64,000 nt of DNA from Squalus acanthias. Taxonomy: Eukaryota. The notes below the pieces were generated by a model. That model searched no databases. It was not told the origin of the DNA and saw only the letters and a list, made by a program, of their open reading frames with translations. Location: NCBI GenBank assembly GCA_030390025.1, contig CM059432.1:28894001-28958000 (forward strand), in the 5' to 3' direction. The translations under genes and the position numbers were made by a program. Shown one piece after another: positions 2,458 to 57,610 of the stretch; position 1 is the first letter of the stretch; each line of letters opens with the position of its first letter.

Positions 2458-5400
2458 GGGGGGGCAGGGGCACAGGGTGGGGTGGGAAGGGGTCGACACA
2501 GGGTGGGGTGGGTGGAGAAGATTCAGGGTGGGGTGGGTGGGTGTGGGGGAGATATAGGGTGGGGTGGGTGGGCGTGGGGGAGATATAGGGTGGGGTGGGT
2601 GGGCGTGGGGGAGATTCAGGGTGGGGTGGGTGGGCGTGGGGGAGATTCAGGGTGGGGTGGGTGGGCGTGGGGGATTCAGGGTGGGGTGGGTGGGCGGGTG
2701 AGATTCAGGGGGGGGTGGGTGGGCGGGTGAGATTCAGGGGGAGGTGGGTGGGCGGGTGAGATTCAGGGGGAGGTGGGTGGGCGGGTGAGATTCAGGGGGA
2801 GGTGGGTGGGCGGGTGAGATTCAGGGGGAGGTGGGTGGGCGGGTGAGATTCAGGGGGAGGTGGGTGGGCGGGTGAGATTCAGGGGGAGGTGGGTGGGCGG
2901 GAGAGATTCAGGGGGAGGTGGGTGGGCGGGAGAGATTCAGGGGGAGGTGGGTGGGCGGGAGAGATTCAGGGGGAGGTGGGTGGGCGGGTGAGATTCAGGG
3001 GGAGGTGGGTGGGCGGGTGAGATTCAGGGGGAGGTGGGTGGGTGAGATTCAGGGGGTGGGTGGGTGGGATTCAGGGGGTGGGTGGGTGGGATTCAGGGGG
3101 TGGGTGGGTGGGATTCAGGGGGGGGTGGGTGGGTGGGATTCAGGGGGGGTGGGTGGGTGGGATTCAGGGGGGGTGGGTGGGTGGGATTCGGGGGGTGGGT
3201 GGGTGGGATTCAGGGGGGGTGGGTGGGTGGGATTCAGGGGGGGTGGGTGGGTGGGATTCAGGGGGGGTGGGTGGGTGGGATTCAGGGGGGGTGGGTGGGT
3301 GGGATTCAGGGGGGGTGGGTGGGTGGGATTCAGGGGGGGTGGGTGGGTGGGATTCAGGGGGGGTGGGTGGGTGGGATTCAGGGGGGGTGGGTGGGTGGGA
3401 TTCAGGGGGGTGGGTGGGTGGGACTCAGGGGGGGTGGGTGGGTGGGACTCAGGGGGGGTGGGTGGGTGGGACTCAGGGGGGGTGGGTGGGTGGGACTCAG
3501 GGGGGTGGGTGGGTGGGACTCAGGGGGGGTGGGTGGGTGGGACTCAGGGGGGGTGGGTGGGTGGGACTCAGGGGGGGTGGGTGGGTGGGACTCAGGGGGG
3601 GTGGGTGGGTGGGACTCAGGGGGGGTGGGTGGGTGGGACTCAGGGGGGGTGGGTGGGTGGGACTCAGGGGGGTGGGTGGGTGGGACTCAGGGGGAGGTGG
3701 GTGGGTGAGATTCAGGGGGAGGTGGGTGGGTGGGTGAGATTCAGGGGGAGGTGGGTGGGTGGGTGGGTGAGATTCAGGGGGAGGTGGGTGGGTGGGTGAG
3801 ATTCAGGGGGAGGTGGGTGGGTGGGTGAGATTCAGGGGAGGTGGGTGGGTGGGTGGGTGAGATTCAGGGGGAGGTGGGTGGGTGGGTGAGATTCAGGGGG
3901 AGGTGGGTGGGTGGGTGAGATTCAGGGGGAGGTGGGTGGGTGGGAGAGATTCAGGGGGAGGTGGGTGGGTGGGAGAGATTCAGGGGGAGGTGGGTGGGTG
4001 GGTGAGATTCAGGGGGAGGTGGGTGGGTGGGTGAGATTCAGTGGGTGGGTGGGTGAGATTCAGGGGTGGGTGGGTGGGATTCAGGGGGGGTGGGTGGGAT
4101 TCAGGGGGGGGTGGGTGGGTGGGTTTCAGGGGGGGTGGGTGGGTGGGACTCAGGGGGAGGTGGGTGGGTGAGATTCAGGGGGAGGTGGGTGGGTGAGATT
4201 CAGGGGGAGGTGGGTGGGTGAGATTCAGGGGGAGGTGGGTGGGTGGGTGAGATTCAGGGGGAGGTGGGTGGGTGGGTGAGATTCAGGGGGAGGTGGGTGG
4301 GTTGGTGAGATTCAGGGGGAGGTGGGTGGGTGGGTGAGATTCAGGGGGAGGTGGGTGGGTGGGTGAGATTCAGGGGGGGTGGGTGGGTGGGATTCAGGGG
4401 GGGTGGGTGGGTGGGATTCAGGGGGAGGTAGGTGGGTGGGTGGGATTCAGGGGGAGGTAGGTGGGTGGGTGGGATTCAGGGGGAGGTAGGTGGGTGGGTG
4501 GGATTCAGGGGGAGGTAGGTGGGTGGGTGGGATTCAGGGGAGGTAGGTGGGTGGGTGGGATTCAGGGGGAGGTAGGTGGGTGGGTGGGATTCAGGGGGAG
4601 GTAGGTGGGTGGGTGGGATTCAGGGGGAGGTAGGTGGGTGGGTGGGATTCAGGGGGAGGTAGGTGGGTGGGTGGGATTCAGGGGGAGGTAGGTGGGTGGG
4701 TGGGATTCAGGGGGAGGTAGGTGGGTGGGTGGGATTCAGGGGGAGGTAGGTGGGTGGGTGGGATTCAGGGGGAGGTAGGTGGGTGGGTGGGATTCAGGGG
4801 GAGGTAGGTGGGTGGGTGGGATTCAGGGGGAGGTAGGTGGGTGGGTGGGATTCAGGGGGAGGTAGGTGGGTGGGTGGGATTCAGGGGAGGTAGGTGGGTG
4901 GGTGGGATTCAGGGGGAGGTAGGTGGGTGGGTGGGATTCAGGGGGAGGTAGGTGGGTGGGTGGGATTCAGGGGGAGGTAGGTGGTGGGTGGGATTCAGGG
5001 GGAGGTAGGTGGGTGGGTGGGATTCAGGGGAGGTAGGTGGGTGGGTGGGATTCAGGGGGAGGTAGGTGGGTGGGTGGGATTCAGGGGGAGGTAGGTGGGT
5101 GGGTGGGATTCAGGGGGAGGTAGGTGGGTGGGTGGGATTCAGGGGGGGGAGGTGGGTGGGTGGGATTCAGGGGGAGGTGGGTGGGTGGGATTCAGGGGGA
5201 GGTGGGTGGGTGGGATTCAGGGGGAGGTGGGTGGGTGGGATTCAGGGGGAGGTGGGTGGGTGGGATTCAGGGGGAGGTGGGTGGGTGGGATTCAGGGGGA
5301 GGTGGGTGGGTGGGTGGGATTCAGGGTGAGGTGGGTGGGTGGGTGGGATTCAGGGTGAGGTGGGTGGGTGAGATTCAGGGGGAGGTGGGTGGGTGGGTGA

Positions 5401-7290
5401 GATTCAGGGGGGGTGGGTGGGTGAGATTCAGGGGGAGGTGGGTGGGTGAGATTCAGGGAGAGGTGGGTGGGTGGGTGAGATTCAGGGGAGGTGGGTGGGT
5501 GGGTGAGATTCAGGGGAGGTGGGTGGGTGGGTGAGATTCAGGGGAGGTGGGTGGGTGGGTGAGATTCAGGGAGAGGTGGGTGGGTGGGTGAGATTCAGGG
5601 AGAGGTGGGTGGGTGGGTGAGATTCAGGGAGAGGTGGGTGGGTGGGTGGGTGAGATTCAGGGTGGGGTGGGTGGGTGGGTGAGATTCAGGGTGGGGTGGG
5701 TGGGTGGGTGGGTGAGATTCAGGGTGGGGTGGGTGGGTGGGTGGGTGAGATTCAGGGTGGGGTGGGTGGGTGGGTGGGTGAGATTCAGGGTGGGGTGGGG
5801 TGGGTGGGTGGGTGGGTGAGATTCAGGGTGGGGTGGGTGGGTGGGTGGGTGAGATTCAGGGTGGGGTGGGTGAGATTCAGGGTGGGGTGGGTGGGTGGGT
5901 GGGGGAGATGCAGGGTGAGGTGGGTGGGTGGGGGGAGATGCAGGGTGAGGTGGGTGGGTGGGGGGGAGATGCAGGGTGAGGTGGGTGGGTGGGGGGGAGA
6001 TGCAGGGTGAGGTGGGTGGGTGGGGGGGAGATGCAGGGTGAGGTGGGTGGGTGGGGGGGGAGATGCAGGGTGAGGTGAGGTGGGTGGGTGGGGGGGGAGA
6101 TGCAGGATGAGGTGGGTGGGTGGGGGGGGGAGATGCAGGATGAGGTGGGTGGGTGGGGGGGGGGAGATGCAGGATGAGGTGGGTGGGCGGGGGGGGGGGG
6201 GGAGATGCAGGATGAGGTGGGTGGGTGGGGGGGGAGATGCAGGATGAGGTGGGTGGGTTGGGGGGGGGGGGGAGATGCAGGATGAGGTGGGTGGGGGGGG
6301 GGAGATGCAGGATGAGGTGGGTGGGTGGGGGGGGGGGAGATGCAGGATGAGGTGGGTGGGTGGGGGGGGGGGGGAGATGCAGGATGAGGTGGGTGGGTGG
6401 GGGGGGGGGGAGATGCAGGATGAGGTGGGTGGGGGGGGGGGGGGGAGATGCAGGATGAGGTGGGTGGGTGGGGGGGGGGGGAGATGCAGGATGAGGTGGA
6501 TGGGTGGGGGGGAGATGCAGGATGAGGTGGATGGGGGGGGGGGGGGAGATGCAGGGTGAGGTGGGGGGGGGAGATGCAGGGTGAGGTGGGTGGGGGGGGG
6601 GAGATGCAGGGTGAGGTGGGTGGGGGGGGGGGAATGCAGGATGAGGTGGGTGGGCGGGGGGGGGAGATGCAGGGTGAGGTGGTTGGGTGGGGGGGGAGAT
6701 GCAGGGTGAGGTGGGTGGGGGGGGGGAGATGCAGGGTGAGGTGGGTGGGGGGGGAGATGCAGGGTGAGGTGGGTGGGGGGGGTGGGGAGATGCAGGGTGA
6801 GGTGGGTGGGGGGGGGTGGGGAGATGCAGGGTGAGGTGGGTGGGGGGGGGTGGGGAGATGCAGGGTGAGGTGGGTGGGGGGGGGGTGGGGAGATGCAGGG
6901 TGAGGTGGGTGGGGGGGGTGGGGAGATGCAGGGTGAGGTGGGTGGGGGGGGGGGGGGAGATGCAGGGTGAGGTGGTTGGGTGGGGGGGAGATGCAGGGTG
7001 AGGTGGGTTGGGGGGGGGGGGGGAGATGCAGGGTGAGGTGGGTGGGGGGGGTGGGGAGATGCAGGGTGAGGTGGGTGGGGGGGTGGGGAGATGCAGGGTG
7101 AGGTGGGTGGGTGGGGGGGGGGAGATGCAGGGTGAGGTGGGTGGGGGGGGTGGGGAGATGCAGGGTGAGGTGGGTGGGAGAGGTGTGGAGTAGGTGCAGG
7201 GTGGGGGGGGAGTGGAGAGGTGGAGGGAGTGGGAGAGATGCAGGGTGGGTGGTAGAATGGGAGAAGTGCAGGGTCGGGGTGAAGTAGAGG
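2458..7290. repeat. G-rich minisatellite array (~24-33 bp units), likely G-quadruplex forming
   Basis: Tandem units such as GAGATTCAGGGGGAGGT(GGGT)n, GGGACTCAG(G)7TGGGTGGGT and GAGATGCAGGGTGAGGTGGGT(G)n; the plus strand is almost free of C. Confidence 0.97.
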
Positions 7291-12949: not shown

Positions 12950-13748
12950 TAAAGAATAGCAGGAGCATTACTTTGGGAGTACTTTCAGTGGAGCAGTGGC
13001 ATTATTTAGACACTTTTTGTTATATTTTGTTGTCAAATCATAATCCTGTAGTCCAGGTGCAGTAATAGGTAGGATGACCCTGGTTGGACAAGCAGCATGA
13101 AACTTGCCCTCCCACACACACACTTGGGGGTCCCTAAACCTTGGCTCTTGTGGTCCTGTGCCTAAGTTCTCTGAATTTATGTATGTGAGCTATGTCTATA
13201 CAGAAAGACTGTGTGCATTCCATATTGGGCAAATTCAACTTCCCGATAGCTTACTTTGGAGACTGATGTGTCAGGCACCCAACTGATCAAAACAAATGCT
13301 TTGGTGGATGTGGTGTTTTCAGCTCTGCAACAGATTAGCAGATTTTCTTTGGGTGTATTTTTCTTTGTGCGGCTGTCGTTCATAAGAAAAAGAAAAGCTT
13401 GCACCTCATCATGACTCTCAGAAAGCTATCAAAGCCCTTCACATACAATTAATTACTTTCAAATAAAGTAGCTGCGATTATATAGGCAAACTTTGCAGCC
13501 ATTTTGCACACAGCAAAATCCTATAACTAGCAATGAGATGAATCACTAATGAATCTGTTAATTAAGCTTACCTTGAAAGAGCATGGCCAGCCTCTGGAGG
13601 TCCCAAATTTGTTGTGGACATCCTTTACTGCCACCCAAGTTCTTTGCTGGTACCATCTGCACCCATTGTTAAGTTAGCATAAGGAAGCCCAGATTCTTAT
13701 CCATACATCTATTTTGCACTCCAGCTCATTGTTGCTTACCCTGTGGTT

Positions 13749-13962
13749 ATGATGCAGAGATGCCGGTGTTGGACTGGGGTGGACAAAAATGAGAAGTCGC
13801 ACAATACCAGGTTATAGTCCAACAGTTTTATTTAAAATTACGAGCTTTCGGAGCGCTGCTCCTTCTTCAGGTACAAGTACGAAGAAGGAGCAGCGCTCCA
13901 AAAGCTCGTAATTTTAAATAAAACTGTTGGACTATAACCTGGTGTTGTGCGACTTCTCATTT
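13749..13962 (-). mobile_element. Penelope-derived fold-back mini-element (214 bp)
   Basis: ~85-bp inverted arms around AGGTACAAGTAC; 13-bp TSD TTACCCTGTGGTT (13736-13748 and 13963-13975); the arm matches the terminal region of the GIY-YIG element at 60522-60610. Confidence 0.88.
13838..13874 (-). ncRNA. Minimal type I hammerhead ribozyme motif
   Basis: Minus strand gtac-CTGAAGA-A-GGAGC-agc-GCTCC-GAAA-GCTC-gtaa: intact core, 5-bp stem II, 3-bp stem I, palindromic AGCT in place of stem III. Confidence 0.75.
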
Positions 13963-15092
13963 TTACCCTGTGGTTGGTTGGGAAACTCTCAGTGAGCAGG
14001 TAATTCCCCTACCATATGTAGTAAAGGCCTGGGGAATTGAAGCTATCATTGAAGGTTCCTGGGTCTGCTTACAATGAAATTGACCAACTTGATTTGGGGG
14101 ATTTTGTGTTGACTTCTGGTGTGGAATGCATTCAACCAGCATTCCATCAGCATTGAAAATCATTCATGATTTGGACCTGTACTCAAGTTTGGTGGCAACT
14201 AAGCTTTGATCTTCATGCAGCCTGGAGTGCAGTGTGATTTTGTTATCTAAAGTCTCCTCTCGGGTTGCTGTAAGGTTGTACGTTGAAAAAGTTTCTTGCA
14301 GATTAAACCTCTCACATTTATAATTTGGCATTAATTTCCATTAAATGAGCAATTTCACAGAGAATGGCTGGTGTGAGAAATTGAACATGCCACACTGGTG
14401 CAGTAAGAGGTGTTCTGAATTTAGGATTAAGGCAGCTTGTTGGGCCAGAGTAGTGAGAGCTTTAGGTTGCATCTGTTCTGTGCCATACAAAATCTGGGAG
14501 TGGCAAGTCCCTGTGTTTCACCTCTTTGGCACTAACATTGATAATCTTAATAGGCACAAAAATTCACTTGAAAGAAACTTACGTACAACATTGTAATTGT
14601 AGAACTTGATTTAATATCACAGCATGTATTTGGAAGATGCCAATAAAATGTAATAAAAATCAAAATATTGTGTGTAAGTGTGAGGAATTAAGTCATGAAT
14701 TGGTCTCCTTATTGTTTCTTTGGAGATTTCTTACTTGCATGGGTCTGTGCAACTAACAGAATTGTTGCCCTTCCCATTTCATGACCTGACCCATGAAGGA
14801 TTACGTTGTGTCCTGACCTGACTGAAATAGGTCGTGTATGGCTGAGAGCATATAGCACCTGTTTGAAAGGCAGGATATGCCTTACTAGTGCTGAGTGTGG
14901 GAACAGGGTTCACACTACTCGGGTACCTCACTATTCTTTCTGCGCAGTCTGTGAGATCAGCACATGCTGGGTTAAAAGTTAAAACAGCTTTCTGCTGAGC
15001 CTGGGTTGTAAATTGGCTATGAGGATTTTGGGGAAAGGATGTCTTCAGGGGAAAGATAATAGTAGGATGTGTAAGAGTCATTCAACCATATT

Positions 15093-17772: not shown

Positions 17773-19078
17773 TTTCAATGAAGACCTGATCCTGCATTAC
17801 TACAACTGAGTGTGTGTGCAGTCTGACGTTTAAAGCAACAAAACGAAAAAGAACAAGAACAAGAAAGCTGTCCAACACTGAGCTAGTTTCTTTTGATCGG
17901 GAAATGGAAAACACTTCATAGCGAAGGAGTGGGTTGTGGAAAATTAGCATTGTTAGTGGTGTCAATTAGCTCATAGTTATAAAATAAATGTAAAGCAGGT
18001 AATGAACACTCTCTCTTTCTCTCTCTCTCTCTCTCTCACACACACCCCACACCTACCCAGAGATTTGTTCCTTGATTGTCGTACCTGTTTATAGATGAAG
18101 AATTTCCAGGTGTCAGATATTAGCTAAAGTACAAACGTTCCAAATCCCTGTCCATTTAAGACAATGTGACAGAGGTTTGATCCTACTCAGGTAAATTGGC
18201 TGGTATGTTCTCCCTGGAATGTTTTTATTTGTACACAAGTATAACTGGAAGGGAGCATTTGACAGATGGTGCATGCCCAAAGGCATTCAAGTTAATAATG
18301 GAAATTTTTAGATATTTGAAAGTCCTCAAAGTTTGCTCATACAGCAATTCCCCAAAATATAGAATTGAAATTTTTACAATACAAATAAAATGCTTTGGGC
18401 TCGATTTTCCCAGGTCCGAGGTGGCGGGTTTGGAGGCGTGTGAGTTGTTAAAATTGCAAAAAATGGCGGGCGGATCCGATCCCGCCTCCAGCCCGCCTCT
18501 GAGCAATTTTCCCACAATCGTGGTTTCAGATCCCGTTTCCATCCCGCCTCCAAAAGGCGGGATAGGCCCTTAAGGCCCTTACAATCAGTTAAGTGCCTCT
18601 ATAATCCCATTTTGAGAGGCCTTTCTGAATTTAACACATTTCCCCCGTGCTGCACGTCTCCTCTGGAACACGCCAGTTAATCCTGGCGGCCTCACAAGTG
18701 GATTGCTTACTAACAGCTGCAGCTCCACCATTAAAGAGGAGTTTTCAGCAATGATCATTTGCAGGTGGCAGAACTTTGTTGTCTCAGGTCTGGGGGAACT
18801 TTTAGCAGGCCTACTCATTGTTGTGGAAGTTTGGAGCCTGACACCCATCTCCAGTGTGACCTCCTGGGAAACCCCTCTCCCCACCTTGACTGAGCGCTTC
18901 CTCAACTGAAGCATAGGAACCATTTATTTCTTTCCTCCTGGACATCAGATTCGGACGAAGACCAGCCACGGCAGCAGCAGAACCCTGAACAACAGCAGCA
19001 CCAACAGCAGGAGCAACAACAGGAGCGCCAAGCGGCAGTCACCCACCTGAAGTTGCACAGGCCAGAAGGCACCAGCGC

Positions 19079-21324
19079 ATGGAAGCACGTCGCCGCAGGA
19101 GATACCCCCAAAACAGGGTTTACAGACAGAGGATGAGCTACCTCAACATGACTGAGCAGCAGTGCCAAAGGAGGCTCAGACTTTCACGAGAGGTAGTGGG
19201 TGACATCTGCGCAATGCTGCAGCAAGACCTGGAGCCCAGAGGAGCGGGTGGACACCCCTTACCAGTGGGCGTCAAAGTCACCACTGCACTCAACTTTTTT
19301 GCTTCCGCCTCATTCCAGGGATCAGCAGCAGACATCAGCGGCGTCTCCCAGGCGGCCGCACACACTTGCATCACGCAGGTAACCGATGCCCTCTTTGCCA
19401 TCGTGCACAATTACATTAACTTCTCCAAGGATCAAGCAAGTGTAACCGCGCGTGCGGTTGGGTTTGCGAATCTGGCAGGCTTTCCAAGGGTGCAGGGCAT
19501 CGTTGACTGCACACATGTGGCCCTTAAGGCACCCCATCACAATCCAGGTATTTTTGTCAACCGCAAGGGCTTCCACTCCCTCAACGTGCAGCTGGTGTGT
19601 GACCACAAGAAGGAAATTTTGCATGTTTGTGCCAATTACCCTGGCAGTTGCCATGACTCCTTCATCCTGCGCCAGTCTAGTGTGTGTAGGGAGTGGTGGT
19701 TTTGTGTCAGCTTCACCTCTGACTTCTGAGCAGTTCGAATCGCTCCCACTCACTTGATTCTAGACCCTGGACTTATTTGGGGGTGCAGCAGACAACTGAG
19801 TTTGATGAAAGAACTTCAATCTTTATTAAAAGGTAAAACACGAATGACAACACTCTTAACACTCTAAAGGTGGGGAACACTTCGGTACAAGCGAGGGAAA
19901 TAACATTAGGAGAATACTTCACCCTCCCAATCCCACTTCACTAGCTAGGTTGGACTCTGGAGAACCAGGGATAATGCTCACCAAACGAATCCTTGACATT
20001 TGAGAGTTAGGGTTTAGAGTCTTTTGAGTAAAAGGTTTCGTAAGGCCCTTGTTGCCGCAAGGAATCTGATGGTCACTGGAACTGTTGCTCTGGTTTCTTC
20101 TTGCGTGTCGGCCTGCTTCTGGAGCTGTTGGCTTTCTTTGTTGAACTTCTTTCTGTTGAACTCTGCCTCTGTTTAAACTGTCTTCTTCTGAGCTGTGGAA
20201 CTGCCTTCTGTTGAACTTGAACTGTTGTTACTGCTGAACTGCTTGATGGGCCTTCAATTATACTAAATTGAAGTGGCCTTATCAAAACCAAATCAAATCC
20301 TGGTCATTGTAAGACCTCGTTAACAGTAATGACTTTACTAGCGTGTTAACTGGTTTTTGTAAATGTGTGAAGTGGTTTCAGGATAGCTCCATCCTGTCGA
20401 TCTGTTGTTTAATCAGAGTTTGAATTGTCCTCATGTTTTGGGTTTCTTGACTGGGTCTTGGACTTCTATAGAATATTTGCTTTATGCATGTCTTTAATGG
20501 GTTATGTAATCGGTTTGATGGGACCTGTTGTTTTGGGTGGGACTGTCTTCTCCTAGGGTCTATTGTCAAAATGTTAATGCTTGCTGGGGCTTTGAGTGAG
20601 GTCATCCCGGTTCCCCAGACATTGCAATTAACTGCAATAACCAAAACTGCTTTTGCAGAGGTTGAACCCACCTTCTTTTGCAGCCTTTTTCTCCCTTTAC
20701 AGGCCCAGACATGTTTTAAAATGCCAAAACTTGGTTTTTGGTCTTACAGTCTCTTAGGTTAGGCTGTAATGCAATATTATCACTCTGAGGTAGTTCCAAA
20801 GTCCTTTTTCCTTAGGTTTTGGGGATCTGCAAATTTTGGAAACCTTACATGTGCCTCCGCTCTTCAGTCCACCAGACCAACTTTCCGGATGTCTATTTGG
20901 AGACAAGGGCTATCCCCTGAAGACGTGGCTAATGATGCTGTTGAGGAGCCCATCCAACAAAGCTGAGGAGCGCTACAACTCCAGCCACATTTCCACCAGA
21001 TCCATAATCGAGCAAACCATCTGCTTGCTGAAGATGCGATTCGGATGCCTTGATAGATCAGGTGGAGCCCTGCAGTACTCAGCAGCCAGGGTCTCTAGAA
21101 TCGTCGTGGTCTGCTGTGCACTTCACAACATGGCACAGCATTGTGGCTTGCAGCTTGCTGAGGTACAAGTGGCTGATCGCATAACCTCCTCAAATGAGGA
21201 AGAGGAGGAGGAGGAGAGCGACAACGAACAGGTTACGGAGGCGCATCAACCAGAGGCAGCAGCATGCAAGCACATTGCTACCCGGGATGCAAGGGACGCA
21301 CTCATCTTGGCCAGATTTGCTTAG
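19079..21324 (+). pseudogene. Harbinger (HARBI1-like) DDE transposase, split by a solo LTR
   Basis: 19079-19684 joins in frame to 20854-21324 (..[12 protein letters not shown]..), giving 358 codons with IVDCTHV, HDSFIL, GDKGY and RSIIEQ motifs. The true start is probably upstream (~18915) and mutated. Confidence 0.92.
19685..20849 (-). mobile_element. Solo LTR (1165 bp)
   Basis: TGTAGGG...CCTTACA termini, 4-bp TSD TGTG, AATAAA on the minus strand at ~19822, no coding capacity. Confidence 0.88.
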
Positions 21325-21593
21325 CTTGCCCAATCAAACACTTTTGCCTCGCACCTTCTTACCAGAGCATTGACAATGGACAAGAACCTGTGGATTCCTA
21401 TCACTCTGACCACCATACTGACAATTGCAAGTCGCCCATAGCCCTCAATGTGGAAGTCCCATTTGCGAAATGACACAGGCCACAACTTCAACAGTTTGCC
21501 ATCAAATTTTTTTATCATCACAATTCACGGATGGCTTTTCAAAAATAAACACAACAGAACACCCAAGTGACTACCCTTGTGACTACTTGTGCT

Positions 21594-23609
21594 TTATCTT
21601 CCTTTACGCGTGCTCCTACATGGTGCTTCCCCTGTGGCTTTAGCAGATGTGGAGGCCCCTTGCTCACTTTCTTGCTGCTCCTGTCTCGACACCTTTGGCG
21701 AGCATTCTCTGGGGTTGCGAGCCTGTGAGGGATCGGCAACAGTCTGCTGCTCCTGTGGCTGTGCAGGGGCTGAGACGCACATCTCAGTTGGGTGAGGACT
21801 CTGGTGGGGCTCCGACCGAGGGCTCTGCAGTGGCATGGTCGTGTGAGTGCTTGGAGAGGAGCCCCCACTTCCTTGTTCTCTGCCACCAACATCCCTCTCA
21901 TGGGTCAGCCCCACTTCAGAGCTAGCAAGTGGCTTGACAGCACCTTGCTGCACTTCAGAGGGGCCATGAGGACCCGTTTCTGCACTGGAAGTTCTACTCC
22001 AGAGGACTTCCATGAAGGTCTGGTTTCTCTGCTCAATAGCTGACCATCGCTCCTCAAGAGATGTCAGTCTATTCTGAACAATGACCATGTTTTCAAGACC
22101 CTGGCGACTTAGCTCCTCCATGGCCGTAGCCATCCTCTCCTCTACGGTAGTCATCCTCTCCTTGACGGTAGCCAGCCTTACCACGGAGGTAGCCAGCCTT
22201 ACCACGGAGGTAGCCATCCTTTCCACGGAGGTTGCCATCCTTTCTGTGTGATGCGTTCATGCGCCAATGCCTCCACAAAGGCTCTGCTCATGTTCGCGAT
22301 GGACTCCTCCATTCGCTCCACACTCGCAGCGACCCTGGAGACAAAACCTGCCAGAGACTCCTGCACCTGTTCCTGGAGTTCCGGCACCGCTCTCCTTCTG
22401 GATGGACCCGGAGGCACAGGATCGACATGCAGCTGAGCTGAGCTGGGAGAGTCCTGTGGCCTCTGACGAGGACTCTCCACTGCTGTCCCTGTCTCCACCA
22501 TCTGCTGATGCTCACTTGTGATCTGTGATACACCAGGTGACAACACTACTCTATCTCGCGAAGGTCCCACCGAGGTGTGAGTTTCTGCGCTGGTGCTGGG
22601 TGCGCTCAATTCTGCTGACGCTGCACCCTCAGAAGTTACAGCTTCCTCTGAGGAGTCTTCTGGCTCAGGCTGTTCCTCCTGGACAGTGGGGAGGGGGGCT
22701 GTCGATGGTCCTGTGGGGGAGTAAAGGAAAGAGTTAGACATGTGAGATAAAGGTTGCATGCACATTGAATTGTGCAGATGATCATAAGTCAATGTGTTGG
22801 CGCATCAGAATCATTATCAGTCACTCATGCAATGTCAATGAGAGAGATGAAAAACTATTCTGTCACCAGCTTGCTGAGATGCACCCGTCTGTCCGTCCCC
22901 CACTTGCGCATCCTCCTCCACTCCCGCGATCTCCAGGGCCGCCTCCTCTGCAGTGGTGAGCTGGGCTATTGAGGGTGGCCCTCCTCCTGTCCTCGCCCTC
23001 TCCCTCTTATTGTGGGCTCTCTTTTCCTGCAATGAGGGACACAAGTGGAGTTTGAGTGAGAATGAAGGAGTGAGTGTAGAGAATCCATAGCATAGATGCT
23101 TAGAAGGACACAAAGATGGAGTGAGGTGCCAAGACCAAGGGCCCTCCCTGTGTGTTGTAAGTTGTTGTCATAGCATCACAGTGATAGGGAATGTGAGGGC
23201 TGCATAATTGAATAGTTAAGTGAATGTGAACATACAGAGAGAGGGCATGGGTAAGGGTACAGGGATGTAAGGCTGAAGTGGGATGTAGAGGAGGAGGTTG
23301 ACAAAGCAGAGTGCTGGTGATGAGAGGAGATGGGGATCAGATTGAAGGTCATGGGGATGGAATACTCACTTTTCCTGTGCGGAGAAGGTCATGAAACCTC
23401 TTTCTACACTGCAGCCAGGTTCTGCTGCACATTGAAATTGCATTCACCTCCTGTGCCACTTGCAGCCACACAGCTTTGGTCTGTTGTGGAGGCTTTTTCC
23501 TCCCTGAGGAAGGAAAGAGCACTTCCTTATTTGCTTTTGCTCCCTCCACCAGAGCTTGGAGGGAGGCCTCATCGAAGCTGGGTGCACACTTTGGTCTGGT
23601 GCTGGACAT
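21594..23609 (-). pseudogene. Harbinger Myb/SANT-like DNA-binding protein, 3 exons, one frameshift
   Basis: Exons 23609-23370, 23026-22867 and 22710-21594 with GT/AG and compatible phases (0, 1); W-x-x-V-A...TWLQCRKRFHDL and RTGGGP motifs; frameshift near 22240; basic C-terminus RSTRKGR. Confidence 0.88.
22126..22242 (-). repeat. 21-bp coding tandem repeat (heptad)
   Basis: Encodes MATSVER-MATSVVR-LATSVVR-LATVKER-MTTVEER-MATA. Confidence 0.85.
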
Positions 23610-24294: not shown

Positions 24295-27030
24295 CATAGG
24301 AACAGGAATAGATCATTCAACCCCTCGAGCCTGTTCCGCCATTCAATTAGATCATGGCCGATCTGTATCTTAACTCCACCTACCTGCCTTGGTTCCGTAA
24401 CCCTTAATACCCTACCTAACAAAAATCTAACAATCTGTTTTGAAATTTTCAATTGACCTAGCCATAACAGCTTTTTGGGAATAGAGTTCCAGATTTCCAC
24501 TACGCTTTGTGTGAAGAAGTGCTTTCTGACATCACCCTGAACGGCCTAACTCTACTCTTAAGGTTATGCCCCTTGTTCTGGACTCTCCCACCAGAGGATA
24601 TCGTTTCTCTCTATCTAACCTATCAAATTCTTCAATCATCTTTAACACCTCAATTAGATCACTCTTTATAAGAACATAAGAAATAGGAGCAGGAGTAGGC
24701 CATTCGGCCTCTCGAGCCTGCCCCGCCATTCAATAAGATCATGACTGATCTGATCTTGGCCTTAACGCCACTTTTCCGCCCGCTCCCCATAACCCTTGAA
24801 TCTCCTGTAGCTCAAATATATGTCTATCTCCGCCTTGAATATATTCATGATGCGGAGATGCCGGTGTTGGACTGGGGTGGACAAAAATGAGAAGTCGCAC
24901 AACACCAGGTTATAGTCCAACAGTTTTATTTAAAATTCCGAGCATTCGGAGCCGATTTGTATTCCCTCACTGTACTTGTACCTGAAGCAGGAGCAGCGCT
25001 CCGAAATCTCGTAATTTTAAATAAAACTGTTGGACTATAACCTGGTGTTGTGCGACTTCTCATTTTTGAATATATTCAATGACTCCGCCTCTACAGCTCT
25101 CTGGGGTAGAGAATTCCAAAGATTCACGACCCTCTGAGAGAAGAAATTCCTCCTCATCTCTGTTTTAAATGGGTGACCCCTTATCCTAAAACTGTGCCCC
25201 CTAGTTTTAGATTACCCCAGAAAGGGAAACATCCTCCCTGCATCTACCCTGTCAAGCCCCCTCAGAATCTTATATGTTTCAATAAAATCACTTCTCATTC
25301 TTCTAAACTCCAATGAGTATAGGCCCAATCTGCTCAACCTTTCTTCATAAGACAAACCTTTCATCTCAGGAATTAACCTAGTGAACCTTCTCTGAACTGC
25401 CTCCAATGCAAGTATATTCTCCTTAAATAAGGAGACCAAAACTGCACACAGTACTCCAGGTGTGGTCTCACCAACGCCCTGTACAGTTGTAGCAAGACTT
25501 CCCTACTTTTATACTTCATCCGCCTTGCAATAAAGGCCAACATTCCATTTGCCCTCCTAATTACTTGCTGTACCTGCATGCTAACTTTTTGTGTTTCATG
25601 TACGAGGACCCCCAGATCCCTCTGTACCGCAGCATTATGTAGTCTCTCTCCACTTAAATAATAATTTGCTTTTTTATTCTTCCTACCAAAGTGTATAACC
25701 TCACATTTTCCCACATTATACTCCATCTGCCAAATTTTTGCCCACTCACTTAACCTATCTATATCACTTTGCAGACTCTTTGTGTGTCCTCTTCACAACT
25801 TGCTTTCCCACCTATCTTTGTATCATCAGCAAATTTGGCTATAGTGCACAAGGTCCCTTCATCCAAGTCATTAATATAGATTGTAAATAGTTGAGGCCCC
25901 AGCAATGATCCCTGTGGCACCCCACTAGTTAAAGTTTGCCAACCTGAAAATGACCCATTTATCCTGACTCTTTGTTTTCTGTTAGTTAGCCAATCCTCTA
26001 TCCATGCTAATATATTACCCCCAACCCCGTGAGCTCTTATCTTGTGCAGTAACCTTTTATGTGGCACCTTATTGAATGCCTTCTGGAAATCCAAATACAC
26101 TACATCTACTGGTTCCCCTTTATCCACCCTGCGCGTTACATCCTCAAAGAACTCTAGTAAATTTGTCAAACACGATTTCCCTTTCACGAAACCATGTTGA
26201 CTCTGCTTAATTGTATTATGATTTTATAAATGTCCTGCTATTACTTCCTTAATAATGGATTCCAGCATTTTCCCAATGACAGATGTTAGGCTAACTGACC
26301 TATAGTTTCCTGCTTTTTGCCTCCCTCCTTTCTTGAATAGAGGCGTTAGATTTGTGGTTTTCCAAATCTGCTGGGACCTCTCCAGAATCCAGGGAATTTT
26401 GGTAGATTACAACCAACGCATCCACTATCTCTGCAGCCACTTCTTTTAAGACCCTAGGATGTCGGCCATCAGCTCCAGGGGACTTGTCAGCCTTTAGTCC
26501 CATTAGTTTGCCTAATACTTTTTCTCTAGTGATAGTCATTGATTTAAGTTCCTCCCTCCCCATAGCCCCTTGATTAATCTTCTTATACTCAAGGGAATAC
26601 AAGCCTAGTCTATGCAACCTGTCCTCACAATTTTAGCCCCAGTGTCATTCTGGTGAATCTGCACTGCACCCCTTCCAAAGCCAATATATCCTTCCTGAGG
26701 TGCAGTGCCCAGAATTGAATGTACTACTCCAGATGGGGTCTAACCAGAGCTCTGTACAACCGTGCATAACTTCCAACCTTTTGTATTCCAGTCCTCTTGC
26801 GATAAAGGCCAACATTCATTAGCCTTTTTAGTTATTTTTTGTACACTAGCTTTTAGTGATTTCTGTACTTGGACCCCTTCGACCCTGTCGTCAGCAAACT
26901 TAGATATAGGGATCTCTATTCCTTCATCCAAGTTATTTATAAATATAGTGAAAAGCTGTGGTCCCAGTACAGATCCCTGTGGGGTGCCTGCCATTTTGAG
27001 TACATACCCATTACCCCTACTCTCTGTCTC
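24295..27030 (-). mobile_element. Cluster of nested/adjacent CR1 LINE fragments
   Basis: Fragments at ~24295-24665, 24667-26575 (frameshifted RT ORFs with FADD) and ~26578-27030. Confidence 0.88.
24848..25065 (-). mobile_element. Penelope-derived fold-back mini-element (218 bp) inserted in a CR1 3' UTR
   Basis: Same termini as 13749-13962; TSD TTGAATATATTCA (24835-24847 and 25066-25078); the plus-strand arm carries a mutated hammerhead, gtacCTGAAGCAGGAGCagcGCTCCGAAATCTCgtaa (24978-25014). Confidence 0.88.
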
Positions 27031-29202: not shown

Positions 29203-29610
29203 TAACAACAACTTGCATTTATATAGCGCCTTTAACGTAGTAAAAGGTCCCAAGGCTCTTCACAGGAGAGTTATCAAACACGATTTGACACCGAACCACA
29301 TAGGAGATATTTGGACAGATGACCAAAAGCTTGGGCAAAGAGGTAGTTTTTAAGGAGTGTCTTAAAGAAGAAGAGAGAGATAGAGAGGCAGAGAGGTTTA
29401 GAGAGGGAATTCCAGAGCCTAGAGCCTAGGCAGCTGAAGGCACGGCCGCCAATGGTGGGGCAATTAAAATTGGGGATGTGCAAGAGGCCAGAATTGGAGG
29501 AGCGCAGAGGTCTCAGAGGGTTGTAGGGCTGGAGGAGGTTGCAGAGATAGGGAGGGGCGAGGCCATGGAGGGATTTGAAAACGAGGATGAGAATTTTAAA
29601 ATTGAGGCGC
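29203..29610 (-). mobile_element. L2-type LINE 3' fragment
   Basis: ACAACAACTTGCATTTATATAGCGCCTTTAACGTAG tail; minus-strand ORF with GGRAFS..LWNSL..FKTLLK. Confidence 0.8.
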
Positions 29611-29829
29611 AGGTGGGAAGAGATCAGGAAGCTGAAAGGTCACAGAGGAGTGCAGTTCTGCAATGTTGTGTTGGCTGGGAGCCACTTCCACTACTTTGAA
29701 GCTGCAGCTTCTGAGTGTTCAAAGATATTTTGTAAAACTTGCTGAGAATATAAAGGGTCCTCTGCATAGTGAAATAATGAATTTCCCTCTGGGGATTCCA
29801 TTCTTCCTGTGCTTTGAGAAAGATGATCT

Positions 29830-30075
29830 TGAGCATCCCCGATTTTAATTGCTCCACCATTGGTGGCCAAGCCTTCAGCTGCCAAGGCCCTAAGCTCTGG
29901 AATTCCTCTCCATCTCTCGACCTCTCTTTCCTCATTTAAGATGCTCCTTAAACCCTACCTCTTTGACCTAGCTTTTGGCCATCTGCACTAATATCTCCTT
30001 ATGTGGCTCGGTGTCGAATTTTGTTTTATAACGCTCTTGTGAAGCACCTTGGAATGTTTTACAAGTTGTTGTTGT
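29830..30075 (+). mobile_element. L2-type LINE 3' fragment (inverted relative to 29203-29610)
   Basis: Reverse complement of ~29203-29480, ending CAAGTTGTTGTTG. Confidence 0.75.
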
Positions 30076-34972: not shown

Positions 34973-35326
34973 AGAGTCATAGGGGTAGAAATTAGGTCGC
35001 GCCCCATTTGGGGCGCAAATATCGTCCGGACGCAAATATTAGCGCCTGGCGCTAATTATCGGCACTGACAGGAAACTTCACTTTTACCGCCCCGGGAGGT
35101 GAGTGGAGCGCTAAAGCAGGCACGGCACACCTGTCTTAAGGCGCAAAGGCCAAGGAGTGAGGCGCTAACTCAGCTGCTGCTGCTGCCAGTTAGCGAGGGA
35201 ACACAGACACACTGGCGCCGGCCACTTCTTAAAGCGGGGGGGGCCACTTGCTCCCCAGCCACACCCTGCTCATTGCAGCCTTGAATCTCAGCCTGGAGAG
35301 ACCTGTAATCCATTTTGCTGCCAAGC

Positions 35327-37258
35327 ATGGAGAGGGTGAGAGAACGCGCTCATCGCTTCACCGAGCGGGCCTTGGATGCTCTGGTTGACGCAGTGGAGCG
35401 CAGACGATGTATGCTGTTCCCTGAGAGTGGCAGGAGGCCTTTGCCACGCGAGTTCAGAAGAGTGTGGAGGGAGGTGGCTCAGAGCGTCTCCTCCAGGAGC
35501 ATGGTGCCCAGGACCCATGTTCAATGCCGCAAAAAGTTCAACGACCTCACTCGGGTCGTCAGGGTGAGTGGCTTTTTCTCAATACCTCTCCATCCCTCCA
35601 TCTCAACCTCACTCTATGGCCAGAGGGTCTTAAAACCCCAATGCACAACACTCATCCAACACCTATGGCCCTTTCATGAAACACACACACACATTCTACA
35701 CTTTGCATACAGTAAGGGCTATTTACCTATGGGAGGCACATCAGGCAAGACCATGGCTGTATATTGTAAGGGCTATTCACCTATGGGAGGCACATCAGGC
35801 AAGACCATGGCTGTATATTGTAAGGGCTATTCACCTATGGGAGGCACATCAGGCAAGACCATGGCTGTATATTGTAAGGGCTATTCACCTATGGGAGGCA
35901 CATCAGGCAAGACCATGGCTGTATATTTACTCAGATGCTGTCCTTTTTCTTGCAGGCTAAGCTGGCTCATAATCGGAGACAGCAGCAACGGACGGGTGGA
36001 GGGCGGCTTCAGCTGCAACCTCTCAGCGATCTGGAGGAGCGCGTCCACAGGATTGTGGCAAGCCGGGTGATCGGTCCCGTCGCCACTGGAGACGCCGACC
36101 CCGTTGTGGACAGCAATGGTAAGGTCATCACCTTTTTGTCCTCTGTCCTTCCACTTGTCCCTCACAATACCAGCCTTTGACACTTTCAATCCAACTTGCT
36201 AACTCGCTGCACTTATTCCTCCCTTACTGCCACCCTGTCCTCACGCTAAAGCCACTCTTGTACCTCCCTGCTTTCAGATGATGATTCACCAGCTGAGGAG
36301 ACGGGCCCTGAAGCTGCCACTGGGAGTGATGCTGCAGCCGAGGAGGAAGAGGAAGCCGGAGCATCAGTGCCACCCTCTCCCGAGGAAGCCCATGCCCACA
36401 CTGGGAACACGCCTTCCCCGGAGGGGAGCAGGGGGGAAGGGGCTGATGATGGTGAAGCTCCAGGACCCAGCGGGCTGCAGCAACGCCATGGGGGGGGGTA
36501 GGGAAGAACGGGGGCCTTCTCCCCAGAGGGAGAGTATGCCAGACACTCCTACTGCAATGGACGCAGAGGAGGAGCGGCTGATTGCAGAAATGAACACCCA
36601 GGCGGTGGTCATGCACACTGAGCTCATGGGTGCAGTGGGAAGGGTGCCCGAATGCATTGAGTCACTGGCAAGGAGTGTGGAGCACTTCGCTGTAGCACAG
36701 GCGGATGCCACACTAACGCTTAGTGCTGCAATTCAGTCACTGGCTGCCGTGATCCCACCTCTGACTGCTCTCATACAGACTCAGATGGAGGCCACGCGAG
36801 CACAGACTGCTGCCAACCTCGATGGTTCGTGCACATGTCCCCGGGGCTGTCACCGCGCCGCAGCAGGCCAGCAATCTGTTCTCCGGCAGATTGCTCCGGA
36901 TGCTGAAGTGCTGCCCCGTGGGAGTGCCAGTGTGTCGGGCGAGCAGGGAGTTGCTGTCCTCTCTCACGATGACAGCATTCCTGCTGCCAACACTGTCACT
37001 TCTCCACTGCACTTGCCACCGCCTGTAGGACAGACTGCTGCCGCCCATGCAGAGTTGGTGCAGTCTGCAGCCGGGCCCTCCAGGCCCAGAAGTGGTCGAG
37101 GCCGTCCTTCAGGGGCATCTGCAGTGTCAGGGTCTGACGAGCAGCAGCCTTCCACCAGCCTTGCTGCAGCCACTGAGGTCCCATTACGGAGGAGCAGTAG
37201 GGTTAGAAGGGGAGAAGTGCGCAAGGGAAGGAGATCACCCTCGAAGGGCAAAAAGTAG
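35327..37258 (+). CDS. Harbinger Myb/SANT-like protein, 3 exons, apparent +1 frameshift in a G9 run
   Basis: Exons 35327-35563, 35956-36118 and 36278-37258 (GT/AG, phases 0 and 1); VWREVAQ...QCRKKFNDL and RTGGG motifs; removing one G at 36490-36498 gives one continuous frame ending RRSPSKGKK. Confidence 0.82.
35711..35926 (+). repeat. 54-bp tandem repeat x4 in Myb intron 1
   Basis: TGTAAGGGCTATTCACCTATGGGAGGCACATCAGGCAAGACCATGGCTGTATAT, near-perfect copies. Confidence 0.95.
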
Positions 37259-37576
37259 GAGGTGTGCCAAAATGCTGGTCATTTTTTAATTAAAGGCCGA
37301 GGTTCATGGTCCAACTTTTGTTTAGTGTTTTGGACATTATCTCCAGGTTGTGAGAACCAGTTATGTTATTGACTGTTTTTTTGTGTTTATTTCTATGAGT
37401 TTGTCATGAGGAATTGACACACACAGAGTTTGTAAAATAAATAAATTTCTGTTTTCAAAATATACATGGCTGGTGCTTGGAATTATTGGTGCCTTGGCCG
37501 GCTTAGGGGTTGCGTGCTGGGTTGATTAGTGTTTGTAGCAATGGCAGGGGCCCTAGAAGCGGCTTGCTATTAGTCG

Positions 37577-38713
37577 TTAACGGACGGCCCTTGCAGTTTG
37601 ACCATTGTGGGCCGCCCTCCCGCCTTGGTGCTGCTGATGATCATCGTCCTCGTCCTCTTCCTCCTCTTCCTCCTCCTCCTCTGGTGGTGCTACAAGGCCT
37701 GGTGGCATTGGCTGGGTCCTGAGGATTGCCATGTTGTGCAACATGCAGCACACGACTACGAAGTTCGAAACTTGCTCAGGCGAGTACTGCAGGGCTCCTC
37801 CGGAATGGTCCAGACAGCGGAACCGTTGTTTCAGCACGCCGATTGTGCGCTCAATAATGTTCCTGGTTGCTTGATGGCTTTCATTGTACCGCAGCTCAGC
37901 AGGGGTGTTTGGCGTACGGAGCGGTGTCATCAGCCAGGTGCTCAATGCGTACCCCTTGTCCCCCAGAAGCCAACCAACTGGCTGATGCGGTGCCTCGAAA
38001 ACTTCTGCCACAGTAGTCTGGCGCAGGATGAAAGCATCGTGGCAGCTGCCCGGATAGTGAGCATTGACAGCGAGTATCACCTGTCTGTGGTCACAGACCA
38101 ACTGCACATTCAAGGAATGGAAACCCTTCCTGTTCCTGAATTCCTCTGCATTCTCTCGCGGAGCACGCAAAGCCACATGCGTGCAGTCAATGGCGCCCTG
38201 CACCATGGGGAAGCCCGCTACCCTCGCAAAGCCCAGAGCACGGTCACGCTGCTTGTCTGGGGTCATAGGGAAAGAGATGAAGTCTCGTCTCCTTCTGAAG
38301 AGGGCATTGGTGACCTGCCGGATGCAGCGATGCACCGCAAACTGGGAGATATTGGCGAGGTCCCCAGCAGCAGCTTGGAATGAGCCAGTGGCGTAGAAGT
38401 TCAAAGCCACTGTGACCTTCACTGCCACCGACAGAGACGTCCTGGACCTCAGCTGAGGCTGCAGATCTGGCTGCAGCAGGTGGCAGAGCTCAGTGACCAC
38501 CTCCTTGCTGAATCGCAGCCTCCGCAAACACAGCTCCTCGGACATATGGATGTAGGAGAGCTGTTCACGATATACCCTGGGAGGGTAAGCTCTCCTGTAC
38601 ATGCGCTTGATGGCCCTCCTCCGTCTGGCCATCATTGCCACTCTCTGTCTGCGTCTCTGTATCCTCCGATTCAGCTGGAGCAGGACGACGCCCCCAATCA
38701 TTGCAGCCCCCAT
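37577..38713 (-). CDS. Harbinger (HARBI1-like) DDE transposase, 378 aa from the first ATG
   Basis: Uninterrupted ORF with [61 protein letters not shown] and an acidic tail. Confidence 0.93.
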   Translation of the reverse strand: MGAAMIGGVVLLQLNRRIQRRRQRVAMMARRRRAIKRMYRRAYPPRVYREQLSYIHMSEELCLRRLRFSKEVVTELCHLLQPDLQPQLRSRTSLSVAVKVTVALNFYATGSFQAAAGDLANISQFAVHRCIRQVTNALFRRRRDFISFPMTPDKQRDRALGFARVAGFPMVQGAIDCTHVALRAPRENAEEFRNRKGFHSLNVQLVCDHRQVILAVNAHYPGSCHDAFILRQTTVAEVFEAPHQPVGWLLGDKGYALSTWLMTPLRTPNTPAELRYNESHQATRNIIERTIGVLKQRFRCLDHSGGALQYSPEQVSNFVVVCCMLHNMAILRTQPMPPGLVAPPEEEEEEEEEDEDDDHQQHQGGRAAHNGQTARAVR

Positions 38714-40438
38714 ATTCTCTTTGCCAGAAAAGTAATGAGGTACAGCAACTAAAGTAGCAACAAAGTTAGGATGAATCGGCAAAACTACCTCACAAAGCGT
38801 TGAGTCAATGTAGAAGTCTCTCTCTCTCTCTCCCCGAATCTCTCTCTCTCTCTCAGAACGAGTGGTGCATAAATGTCGACCACAGAAAAAGACAGGAAGA
38901 GGCCCCCTTTAAATAGCGCCCCCCCCAGCCCCACACCGATTGATAACGTTCCAGTCTTCCGGTCGTTGGAAGCGCCAGGCGGTAAGGTTATACAGCACAG
39001 AAAGAGGCCCTTCGGCCCATCGTGTCCACGCCAGATATCAAGCCCTGTCTATTCTAATCCCATGTTCCAGCACTTGGTCCGTAGCCTTGCATGCTATGGC
39101 GGTTCAAGTGCTCATCTAAATGCTTCTTGAATGTTGTGAGGGTTCCTGCCTCTACCACCCTTTCAGGCAGTGAGTTCCAGATTCCAACCACCCTCTGGGT
39201 GAAAAGGTTTTTCCTCAAATCCCCTCTAAACCTCCTGCCCCTTACCTTGAAACTATGCCCCCTGGTTATTGACCCCTCTACTAAGGGGAAAAGTTCCTTT
39301 CTATCTACCCTATCTATGCCCCTCATAATTTTGTACACCTCAATCAGGTCCCCCCTCAGCCTTCTTTGCTCTAAGGAAAACAACCCCAGCCTGTCCAGTC
39401 TCTCTTCATAGCTGAAGCACTCCAGCCCAGGTAACATCCTGGTGAATCTCCTCTGCACCCTCTCCAATGCAATCACATCCTTCCTATAGTGTGGCGACCA
39501 GAACTGCACACAGTATTCCAGCTGTGGCCTAACGAGCATTTGTACAGCTCCATCATAACCTCCCTGCTCTTATATTCTATGCCTCGGCTGATGAAGGCAA
39601 GTATCCCATATGCCTTTTTAACCACCTTATCTACCTGTCCTGCTGCCTTCAGGGATCTATGTACATGCACACCAAGGTCCCTCTGATCCTCTGTCCTTCC
39701 TAGGATCCTACCATTCATTGTGTATTCCCTTGCCTTGTTAGTCCTTCCAAAATGCATCACCTCACACTTTTCAGGATTAAGTTCCATTTGCCGCTGTTCT
39801 GCCCATCTAACCATCCCGTCTATATCATCCTGTAGCCTGAGGCTTCCCTCCTCGCTATTTACCACTCCACCAATTTTTGTGTCATCTGCGAACTTACTGA
39901 TCATACCTCCTATATTCATATCTAAATCATTAATGTACACTAGAAACAGCAAAGGACCCAGAACCGATCCCTGGGGTACACCACTGGACACAGGCTTCCA
40001 GTCACAAAAACAACCTTCGACCATCACCCTCTGCCTCCTGCCACTAAGCCAATTTTGGATCCAATGTGCCAAATTGCCCTGGATCCCATGGGCTCTTACC
40101 TTCTTGACCAGTCTCCCATGTGGGACTTTGTCAAAAGCCTTACTGAAGTCCATGTAGACTACATCAACTTCACTACCCTCATCCACACACCTAATCACCC
40201 CCTCGAAAAATTCAATCAAATTGGTCAGACATGATCTCCCCCTGACAAAGCCATGCTGACTATTCCTGATTAATCCCTGCCTCTCCAAGTGGAGACTAAT
40301 TCTGTCGCTCAGAATTTTTTCCAATAATTTCCCTACCACTGATGTTAGGCTCACTGGCCTGTAATTCCCTGGTTTATCCCTACTACCCTTCTTGAACAAT
40401 GGTACTACGTTAGCTGTTCTCCAGTCCTCTGGCACCTC

Positions 40439-40644
40439 TGGTCTGCAATTGTAAGGTACACATGCTTTGTTCTCTATCTATATATGCTTTGGCGATTCTG
40501 TATCTATTTACTTCACCTGAGGAAGGGGCAATCGATAGCTCCGAAAGCTTGTGATTTCAAATAAAACTGTTGGACTATAACCTGGTGTTGTGCGACCTCT
40601 CAATTTTGTCCACCCCAGTCCAACACCGGCATCTCCGCATCATG
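40439..40644 (+). mobile_element. Penelope-derived mini-insert (206 bp) in CR1 RT
   Basis: Ends ...CCAGTCCAACACCGGCATCTCCGCATCATG (same tail as the fold-back copies); flanking duplication ACCTC; splits the ATGEV|PEDWR coding sequence. Confidence 0.85.
40512..40554 (+). ncRNA. Minimal type I hammerhead ribozyme motif
   Basis: tcac-CTGAGGA-A-GGGGC-aatcgata-GCTCC-GAAA-GCTT-gtga: intact core, stem II with one G-U pair, 4-bp stem I. Confidence 0.75.
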
Positions 40645-56732: not shown

Positions 56733-57610
56733 TCTGCAAGGGGATATAGACAGGCTAAGTGAATGGGCAAACATTTGGCAGATGGAGTATAATGTGGGAA
56801 AGTGCGAGGTTATACACTTTGGCAGGAAAAATAAAAAAGCAAATTATTATTTAAATGGAGAGAGATTACAAAATGCTACAGTTCAGAGGGACCTGGGTGT
56901 CCTTGTGTATGAAACACAAAAGTTAGCATGCAGGTACAGCAAGTAATCAAAAAGGCAAATGGAATGTTGGCCTTTATTTCAAAGGGGTTGGAGTATAAAA
57001 GCAGGGAAGTTCTGCTACAACTGTACAGGGTATTGGTGAGACCACACCTTGAGTACTGCATACAGTTTTGGTCTCCTTATTTAAGGAAGGATATACTTGC
57101 ATTGGAGGCAGTTCAGAGATGATTCACTAGGTTAAGTCCAGAGATGAGGGGGTTGACTTATGAGGAAAGGTTGAGCAGGCTGGGCCTATACTCTTTGGAA
57201 TTTAGAAGAATGAGAGGTGATCTTATTGAAACATATAAGATACTGAGGGGGCATGACAAGGTAGGTGCAGAGAGGATGTTTCCCCTCGTGGGAAATCTAG
57301 AACGCGGGGGCACAGTTTTAGAATAAAGGGTCGCCCTTTTAGAACTGAGATGAGGAGGAATTTCTTCTCTCAGAGGGTCGTAAATCTGTGGAATTCTCTG
57401 CCCCAGAGAGCCATGGAGGCTGGGTCATTAAATACATTTAAGGTGGAGATAGACAGATTTTTGCAAGATAAGGGAGTGAAGGGTTATGGGGAGTGGACGG
57501 GAAGTGGATTTGAGCCCAAGATCAGCCATGATCTTATTGAATGGCAGAGCAGGCTCGAGGGGCCAAGTGGCCTATTCCTGCTCCTATTTCTTATGTTCTT
57601 ATGTTCTTAT
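56733..57610 (+). mobile_element. CR1 LINE 3' fragment
   Basis: Frameshifted RT C-terminus and (TTCTTATG)n tail; same family as 24667-26575. Confidence 0.9.

Follow-up and report, generated by a model that had tools for sequence, protein, structure and literature searches.

What is the short fold-back at positions 13736-13975 of the DNA considered here: a miniature transposon, a ribozyme-bearing unit that spreads as such, or a product left behind by the integration of a larger retroelement? The window, i.e., the whole stretch analysed (64,000 nucleotides of Squalus acanthias, contig CM059432.1), is repeat-rich vertebrate DNA, and the fold-back contains no open reading frame (ORF). The original prediction treated it as a hammerhead-bearing mini-retroelement derived from a Penelope terminal repeat and mobilised in trans. 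The features described below point to a simpler object. The fold-back almost certainly consists of two 5'-truncated 3' ends of a Penelope-like element (PLE), placed head to head between the duplicated target site; it likely arose in this single insertion and was likely dead on arrival.

Anatomy of the fold-back and its parent element

The body of the fold-back (copy 1) comprises 214 bp and is flanked by an exact 13-nt direct repeat. Its inverted arms (13785-13868 and 13881-13964) are 84 nt each, 98% complementary and separated by a 12-nt spacer, and GTAC-NN-GTAC lies at the centre. The folding energy of the fold-back RNA is -160.5 kcal/mol (z = -20.5), and none of the 200 shuffled sequences was equally stable. 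Thus, the predicted anatomy of inverted arms with one intact and one truncated core is confirmed, with a tail of 36 nt (35-38 nt depending on the chosen end) rather than about 37 nt and a target-site duplication (TSD) of 11-13 bp rather than 13 bp, since the right repeat opens with two letters that extend the element as well. The features of copy 1 are as follows.

13736-13748, plus strand: TSD, left copy; 13 nt, or 11-13 nt after microhomology
13749-13784, minus strand: PLE tail of 36 nt, confined to one arm; 13749 is the inferred outer start of reverse transcription
13785-13880, minus strand: forward segment with 10 nt of parent 3' UTR, a minimal type I hammerhead and the terminal-repeat (pLTR) arm
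13839-13873, minus strand: minimal hammerhead with a 3-bp stem I, CUGAAGA core from 13870, 5-bp stem II, GAAA and palindromic AGCU; predicted cleavage after C at 13842
13881-13962, plus strand: inverted tail-less segment, which begins 2 nt into the core, carries AAAA in place of GAAA and ends at the internal (tail-less) 3' end
13963-13975, plus strand: TSD, right copy; its first two letters double as element continuation

BLAST of the element against the window reveals three further copies.

24835-25078 with repeats, no strand assigned: copy 2, a fold-back of 218 bp (24848-25065) with its own perfect 13-nt repeat (8-13 nt after microhomology) and a mutated core
40437-40644, plus strand: copy 3, non-inverted and 5'-truncated, with 3' UTR, an intact core with a longer loop II, arm, tail and a 5-nt flanking repeat
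60517-61455, minus strand: copy 4, a fragment of the parent PLE with a Cys-rich linker and the GIY-YIG ORF end (one frameshift), 3' UTR, hammerhead (GAAA replaced by AAAA) and an arm ending at the tail-less site

Copy 4 connects the pLTR arm and the hammerhead to the end of the ORF through the 3' UTR, which bears out the derivation from a Penelope terminal repeat. Its 155-aa ORF piece has 20 matches among 94 candidate proteins; the best 16 show 55-89% identity and come mostly from sharks, with Heptranchias, Mustelus, Scyliorhinus and Chiloscyllium among the named homologues. An RVT_1 domain was detected by Pfam in three of the four homologues scanned. The GIY-YIG-type motif (VVYLIRC..C..WYIGET) was identified by eye; Pfam gave no match on the copy 4 piece and no GIY-YIG match in the homologues scanned. 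The element is almost certainly a PLE.

The Cys-rich linker C-x4-C-x2-C...C occurs in the homologues P0002, P0008 and P0009, and its second Cys is Gly in copy 4. A zinc-finger-like linker of this kind between reverse transcriptase (RT) and endonuclease marks the Neptune and Nematis groups (PMC8557442; PMC3846280). The parent is probably a Neptune-type PLE, an assignment made by the linker, which Nematis also has. Three shark gene models (P0003, cytochrome P450; P0005, NOXP20-like; P0017, septin 5a) match the PLE nuclease piece, by exonisation or mis-annotation.

Several other features of the window were observed. About 80 bp just past the stop codon of copy 4 (60855-60935, minus strand) contain a decayed hammerhead-like motif with a 5-bp stem and three core mismatches, which escaped the strict hammerhead scan. 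A second PLE family possibly ends there, and 13 nt are repeated in nearly identical direct form at 60782 and 60933. Opposed arms of about 175 nt at 29302-29999 (80-88% complementary, no hammerhead, no clear TSD) are probably two facing copies of another repeat. Harbinger/PIF-like elements occupy 35309-38908 and 18989-22800, with DDE_Tnp_4 ORFs (443 aa; a 246-aa piece) and a facing Myb/SANT ORF. Two abutting G-rich minisatellites with periods of 29 (130 copies) and 67 (20 copies) span 2506-7178, where GC skew reaches 0.89.

Predicted state of the hammerhead

The motif at 13839-13873 has the composition of a minimal type I hammerhead (CUGANGA and GAAA cores, stems I and II, UH triplet), and its putative cleavage site, after GAAAGCUC, is the one first predicted. 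In a strict scan for CUGANGA...GAAA, intact cores were found at only two positions of the window, 13870 on the minus and 40517 on the plus strand, and ten shuffled windows contained no such core; an Rfam search of the whole window gave no match at gathering score. The motif shares the architecture of minimal PLE hammerheads, namely a short helix I, one nucleotide before stem II and a palindromic minimal helix III, as described in the available text of Cervera and De la Pena (2014, PMC4209133). For Schistosoma, that text also reports motifs that occur in pairs on opposite strands, at distances of 100-700 bp. Unlike those motifs, the opposed motif of copy 1 is truncated inside the core, with the first two core letters missing and GAAA changed to AAAA, and is predicted to mask the intact one.

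Stem I pairs as UAC/GUA in copies 1 and 2 and as CAC/GUG in copies 3 and 4, probably through a single event. The letter at 13839 is the alternative one in 98-99% of contig depth in organisms C and E and in 58% in organism A, among the contigs listed. One compensatory swap between subfamilies suggests that the motif of the parent has been kept by selection.

In the fold-back itself the hammerhead is predicted to be silenced, because forcing its fold costs 47.2 kcal/mol within the full hairpin and only 0.7 kcal/mol in the forward arm alone. According to fold prediction, the core pairs with the inverted arm from its third letter onward with a probability of 0.99-1.0, and on a minus-strand transcript the inverted arm is made before the hammerhead arm. 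Read-through RNA would therefore hold the ribozyme sequestered by the inverted arm and would not be cleaved. Such RNA would also give 84-bp duplexes usable by ADAR or Dicer. The core is damaged or missing in three of the four arms of copies 1 and 2. All four arms extend beyond the predicted cleavage site, so the RNA template would have been uncleaved. For the same reason ribozyme cleavage, considered as the factor setting the junction position, was ruled out.

Outer ends, junctions and formation of the fold-back

The six arms in the window have only two 3' end sites between them, with a spacing of 35-38 nt: three arms carry the tail and three lack it. The 36-nt tail is present in copies 1, 2 and 3 and is missing from the other arm of each fold-back and from copy 4. 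Both sites recur in the contigs of the sequencing runs. Among the contigs listed, loose ends before 13749 occur in 81 (run X5), 21 (X8) and 142 (X12), with flanks unlike one another (agreement 0.36-0.41), and loose ends before 13790 or 13792 occur in 42 (X5) and 324 (X12). In published work, a PLE protein was shown to start at two sites bounding the tail, with unprocessed RNA as the template (Frangieh et al. 2024, PMC11167929). The 35-38-nt spacing matches these two starts, hence each fold-back was likely built at insertion from two truncated cDNAs. The loose-end consensus at 13749 suggests that some copies are 4-5 letters longer; the tail may end at ATG, possibly an ORF start.

The centres, in turn, vary. 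In copy 1, the longer arm is the one with the tail, and it begins at core-10, i.e., 10 nt ahead of the core; the tail-less arm begins at core+2. Copy 2 has outer ends identical in position and a different junction: the tail-less arm is longer (from core-29), and the tail sits on the shorter arm (from core+16). A third fold-back, X5 record 14, a contig from another individual, consists of a forward segment beginning at 13862 and, joined to it, an inverted arm that lacks the tail (13790-13825). All three readable fold-back junctions differ, a count that excludes the X8 opposite-strand joint 13784/13855 (direction ambiguous), so no fixed interior of the kind expected of a MITE is present. Joints 13838/13792 and 13820/13765 of run X12 return near the tail-less start and possibly represent partial tandem pLTRs.

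The UTR letters ahead of the core in copy 1 also precede the core in copy 2. Eleven X5 contigs match to 13880, and their consensus then follows copy 2 for 8 letters and diverges (agreement 0.51); 15 contigs of organism C and 54 of organism E leave at 13872 with UTR like that of copy 4 (all among the contigs listed). By this comparison of letters, the centre is ordinary 3' UTR of the parent and not a family-specific loop, and copies 1 and 2 belong to one subfamily and were assembled differently. The possibility that the two copies represent flip isomers of a single master whose loop is fixed was considered and rejected, since the loop is parent UTR. The four arms of copies 1 and 2 differ at five singleton columns among 69, none of which separates the two insertions; with singletons only, arm sequences do not tell shared from separate templates. 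A small subfamily with a fixed junction may still exist, being compatible with only three readable fold-backs, two in the window and one among the contigs listed.

That the fold-back formed at insertion rather than being copied as a fixed unit is very probable. Two-ended priming is a somewhat favoured route for this. As copy 4 shows, the sequence of both arms is the terminal repeat found downstream of the PLE ORF. Each outer end adjoins one TSD copy and is a 3' end of the element; one of them coincides with the end of the tail, and the other lies 35-38 nt further in. The PLE protein studied by Frangieh et al. (2024, PMC11167929), a predicted dimer, was shown to cut both strands and to extend them. 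Judging from that work, the RT-GIY-YIG protein would cut the two target strands about 11-13 nt apart, and each target 3'-OH would prime one cDNA, one per start site, probably on a single uncleaved RNA. Both cDNAs would terminate early, at about 132 and 82 nt, and would then be joined. In copy 1 the join could have occurred at the GTAC palindrome of the UTR with 2 nt lost, and fill-in would yield the TSD.

Poseidon of Anolis carolinensis (PAc; Frangieh et al. 2024, PMC11167929) provides a close parallel: it has two 3' ends bounding a tail, an uncleaved RNA template and a minimal hammerhead upstream of the starts. It belongs to a different clade, and the available text of that paper contains no head-to-head genomic products; linking its two-strand extension to them is a step made here. 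At the target, 2-3 letters are common to the flank and the element continuation at three of the four outer junctions in copies 1 and 2 (rough chance 0.014-0.034), which is only suggestive because the ends were set by the longest repeat. Several points count against the favoured route. Priming was reported to proceed without homology to the target, and for a Poseidon and not a Neptune element (PMC11167929). The opposite-strand joints of X5 and X8 share no letters among the contigs listed, so junction microhomology is not general. Finally, every observed junction falls no more than about 170 nt from the 3' end, for which a dedicated short template could be the reason.

Self-priming would have the same PLE origin and would also act at insertion: the cDNA, or an antisense template, folds at a palindrome and copies itself, after which the endonuclease trims one tail. 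Palindromes at inverted junctions have been proposed as self-primers (Arkhipova 2013, PMC3846280), the tail has been ascribed to endonuclease resolution (Craig 2021, PMC8557442), and the GTAC-NN-GTAC centre of copy 1 and the high identity of the arms (98% in copy 1, 96% in copy 2) agree with such a scheme. The tail, however, was mapped to two start sites and not to trimming (Frangieh 2024, PMC11167929), and the X5 and X8 joints without common letters speak against a palindromic primer as well. The loop of copy 2 runs without a break into the arm that lacks the tail, and the tail lies on the shorter arm. This tail cannot derive from copying of the tail-less longer arm, and plain snap-back of target-primed cDNA would need extra trimming. 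Self-priming is a possible but rather unlikely origin.

Transcription and movement in trans of a dedicated non-coding fold-back unit with a working ribozyme, the central claim of the original prediction, is improbable. Copies 1 and 2 (214 and 218 bp) are indeed alike in outer ends, subfamily letters and the 13-nt flanking repeat; among the contigs listed, organism A has their UTR variant, C and E have the alternative one, and non-autonomous PLE derivatives are known (Li et al. 2026, bioRxiv 10.64898/2026.07.22.740005). Evidence against such a unit comes from the three differing junctions, from the tail lying on the longer arm in copy 1 and on the shorter in copy 2, from the origin of the centre from the parent UTR, and from a core predicted to be buried at a cost of 47 kcal/mol and mutated in three of the four arms. 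The summed X5 depth of 3,317 over 13880-13884 against 6.5 million over the arm points the same way, weakly, and is not a copy number. Mobilisation in trans is indistinguishable here from the simple case of a coding element truncated at its 5' end.

The small size and the long, near-perfect inverted arms could suggest a MITE derived from a DNA transposon, or else an artefact of assembly or of chance. Both are very improbable given ends that differ by 36 nt and so are not terminal inverted repeats, arms taken from a retroelement terminal repeat, the fold z-score of -20.5, and a second independent fold-back in the window and a third in contigs of another sample; the claim of a true insertion with a TSD, not a MITE, was correct.

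Age, known architectures and meaning

The host repeat of copy 2 has an uninterrupted paralogue (57357-57507) in which the duplicated stretch is found once. Orthologues of the left flank of copy 1 in organisms C and E differ at 13 letters in 319 and at 20 in about 447, respectively, and the match ends exactly at 13748. Beyond this point the contigs continue off the element for 173 letters (C) and 132 letters (E; by reading of table orientation). As read from the left flank, these contigs would be empty sites, and the two related species appear to lack the insert. In X5, a second individual of organism A, the flank contig ends at 13744, 4 letters before the site. A young insertion would fit the perfect TSDs and the two differences between the arms. 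In X8, a putative RNA run, family contigs are present and none covers the single-copy flank bins beside the element. Another short and abundant repeat (13480-13560) lies about 200 bp to the left of the element and gives a depth peak in all four runs.

The architecture of 13736-13975 has already been published for PLEs. Pen2a_Av of Adineta has an inverted pLTR, a 31-bp one-sided tail and 8-10-bp TSDs (Arkhipova et al. 2013, PMC3846280); the scheme of inverted pLTR plus tail is presented as typical of PLEs (Craig et al. 2021, PMC8557442, Fig. 2 legend; curation guide, PMC8969392), and in a canonical EN+ PLE insertion the tail of 30-40 bp is found at one end only (PMC8557442). The fold-back has the same composition: a repeat linked to an ORF through copy 4, a one-sided tail, a head-to-head inverted 5'-truncated copy and a TSD. 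A palindrome at the inverted junction and a pLTR hammerhead are likewise common to it and to the insertions described in the available text of these papers (PMC3846280, PMC8557442). Compared with Pen2a_Av (PMC3846280), the segments here are shorter than 170 nt and lack an ORF, the TSD reaches at most 13 nt versus 8-10 nt in Adineta, and the parent is probably Neptune-type and not Penelope/Poseidon-type. The fold-back is an ordinary stub of a known architecture. Simple inverted truncation, the outcome that the original prediction itself set against its own reading, is thus largely what the published PLE architecture indicates.

Non-LTR retrozymes (Li et al. 2026, bioRxiv 10.64898/2026.07.22.740005) are also non-coding, pLTR-derived and furnished with a type I hammerhead, and one is described in a chondrichthyan. 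According to the available text, they are head-to-tail tandems with at least two hammerheads, in contrast to the single head-to-head unit described here, and eight of the nine predicted Xenopus retrozyme dimers were without cleavage. None of the 28 TRF rows places a tandem array at any of the four copies. A search with 25 exact letters of the arm gave no matches in metagenome contigs and none in viral contigs. The literature, searched by title and beginning of abstract, yielded no description of this shark family; Repbase, Dfam and most subscription papers were outside this search, and the family may be catalogued there.

Two-ended priming admits a bolder extension, which is doubtful at present. 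Shark stubs could record a coupled two-ended PLE integration, in which a dimer uses a single RNA, its two active sites beginning synthesis some 36 nt from each other and priming from opposite nicks. The tail/no-tail asymmetry (three of three here) would then be obligatory, and a short non-coding pLTR RNA specific to the lineage would act as the template.

The formation of PLE inverted repeats and tails has been called unresolved in the literature (Craig 2021, PMC8557442). The residual value of the fold-back is that it documents the geometry of PLE integration, and stubs of this kind, being short, young and bounded by TSDs, are convenient for weighing two-ended priming against self-priming. Insertions missing in relatives could act as phylogenetic markers. 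If the bolder extension is true, genome-wide end classes, TSD lengths and arm haplotypes would settle how PLE inverted repeats are formed.
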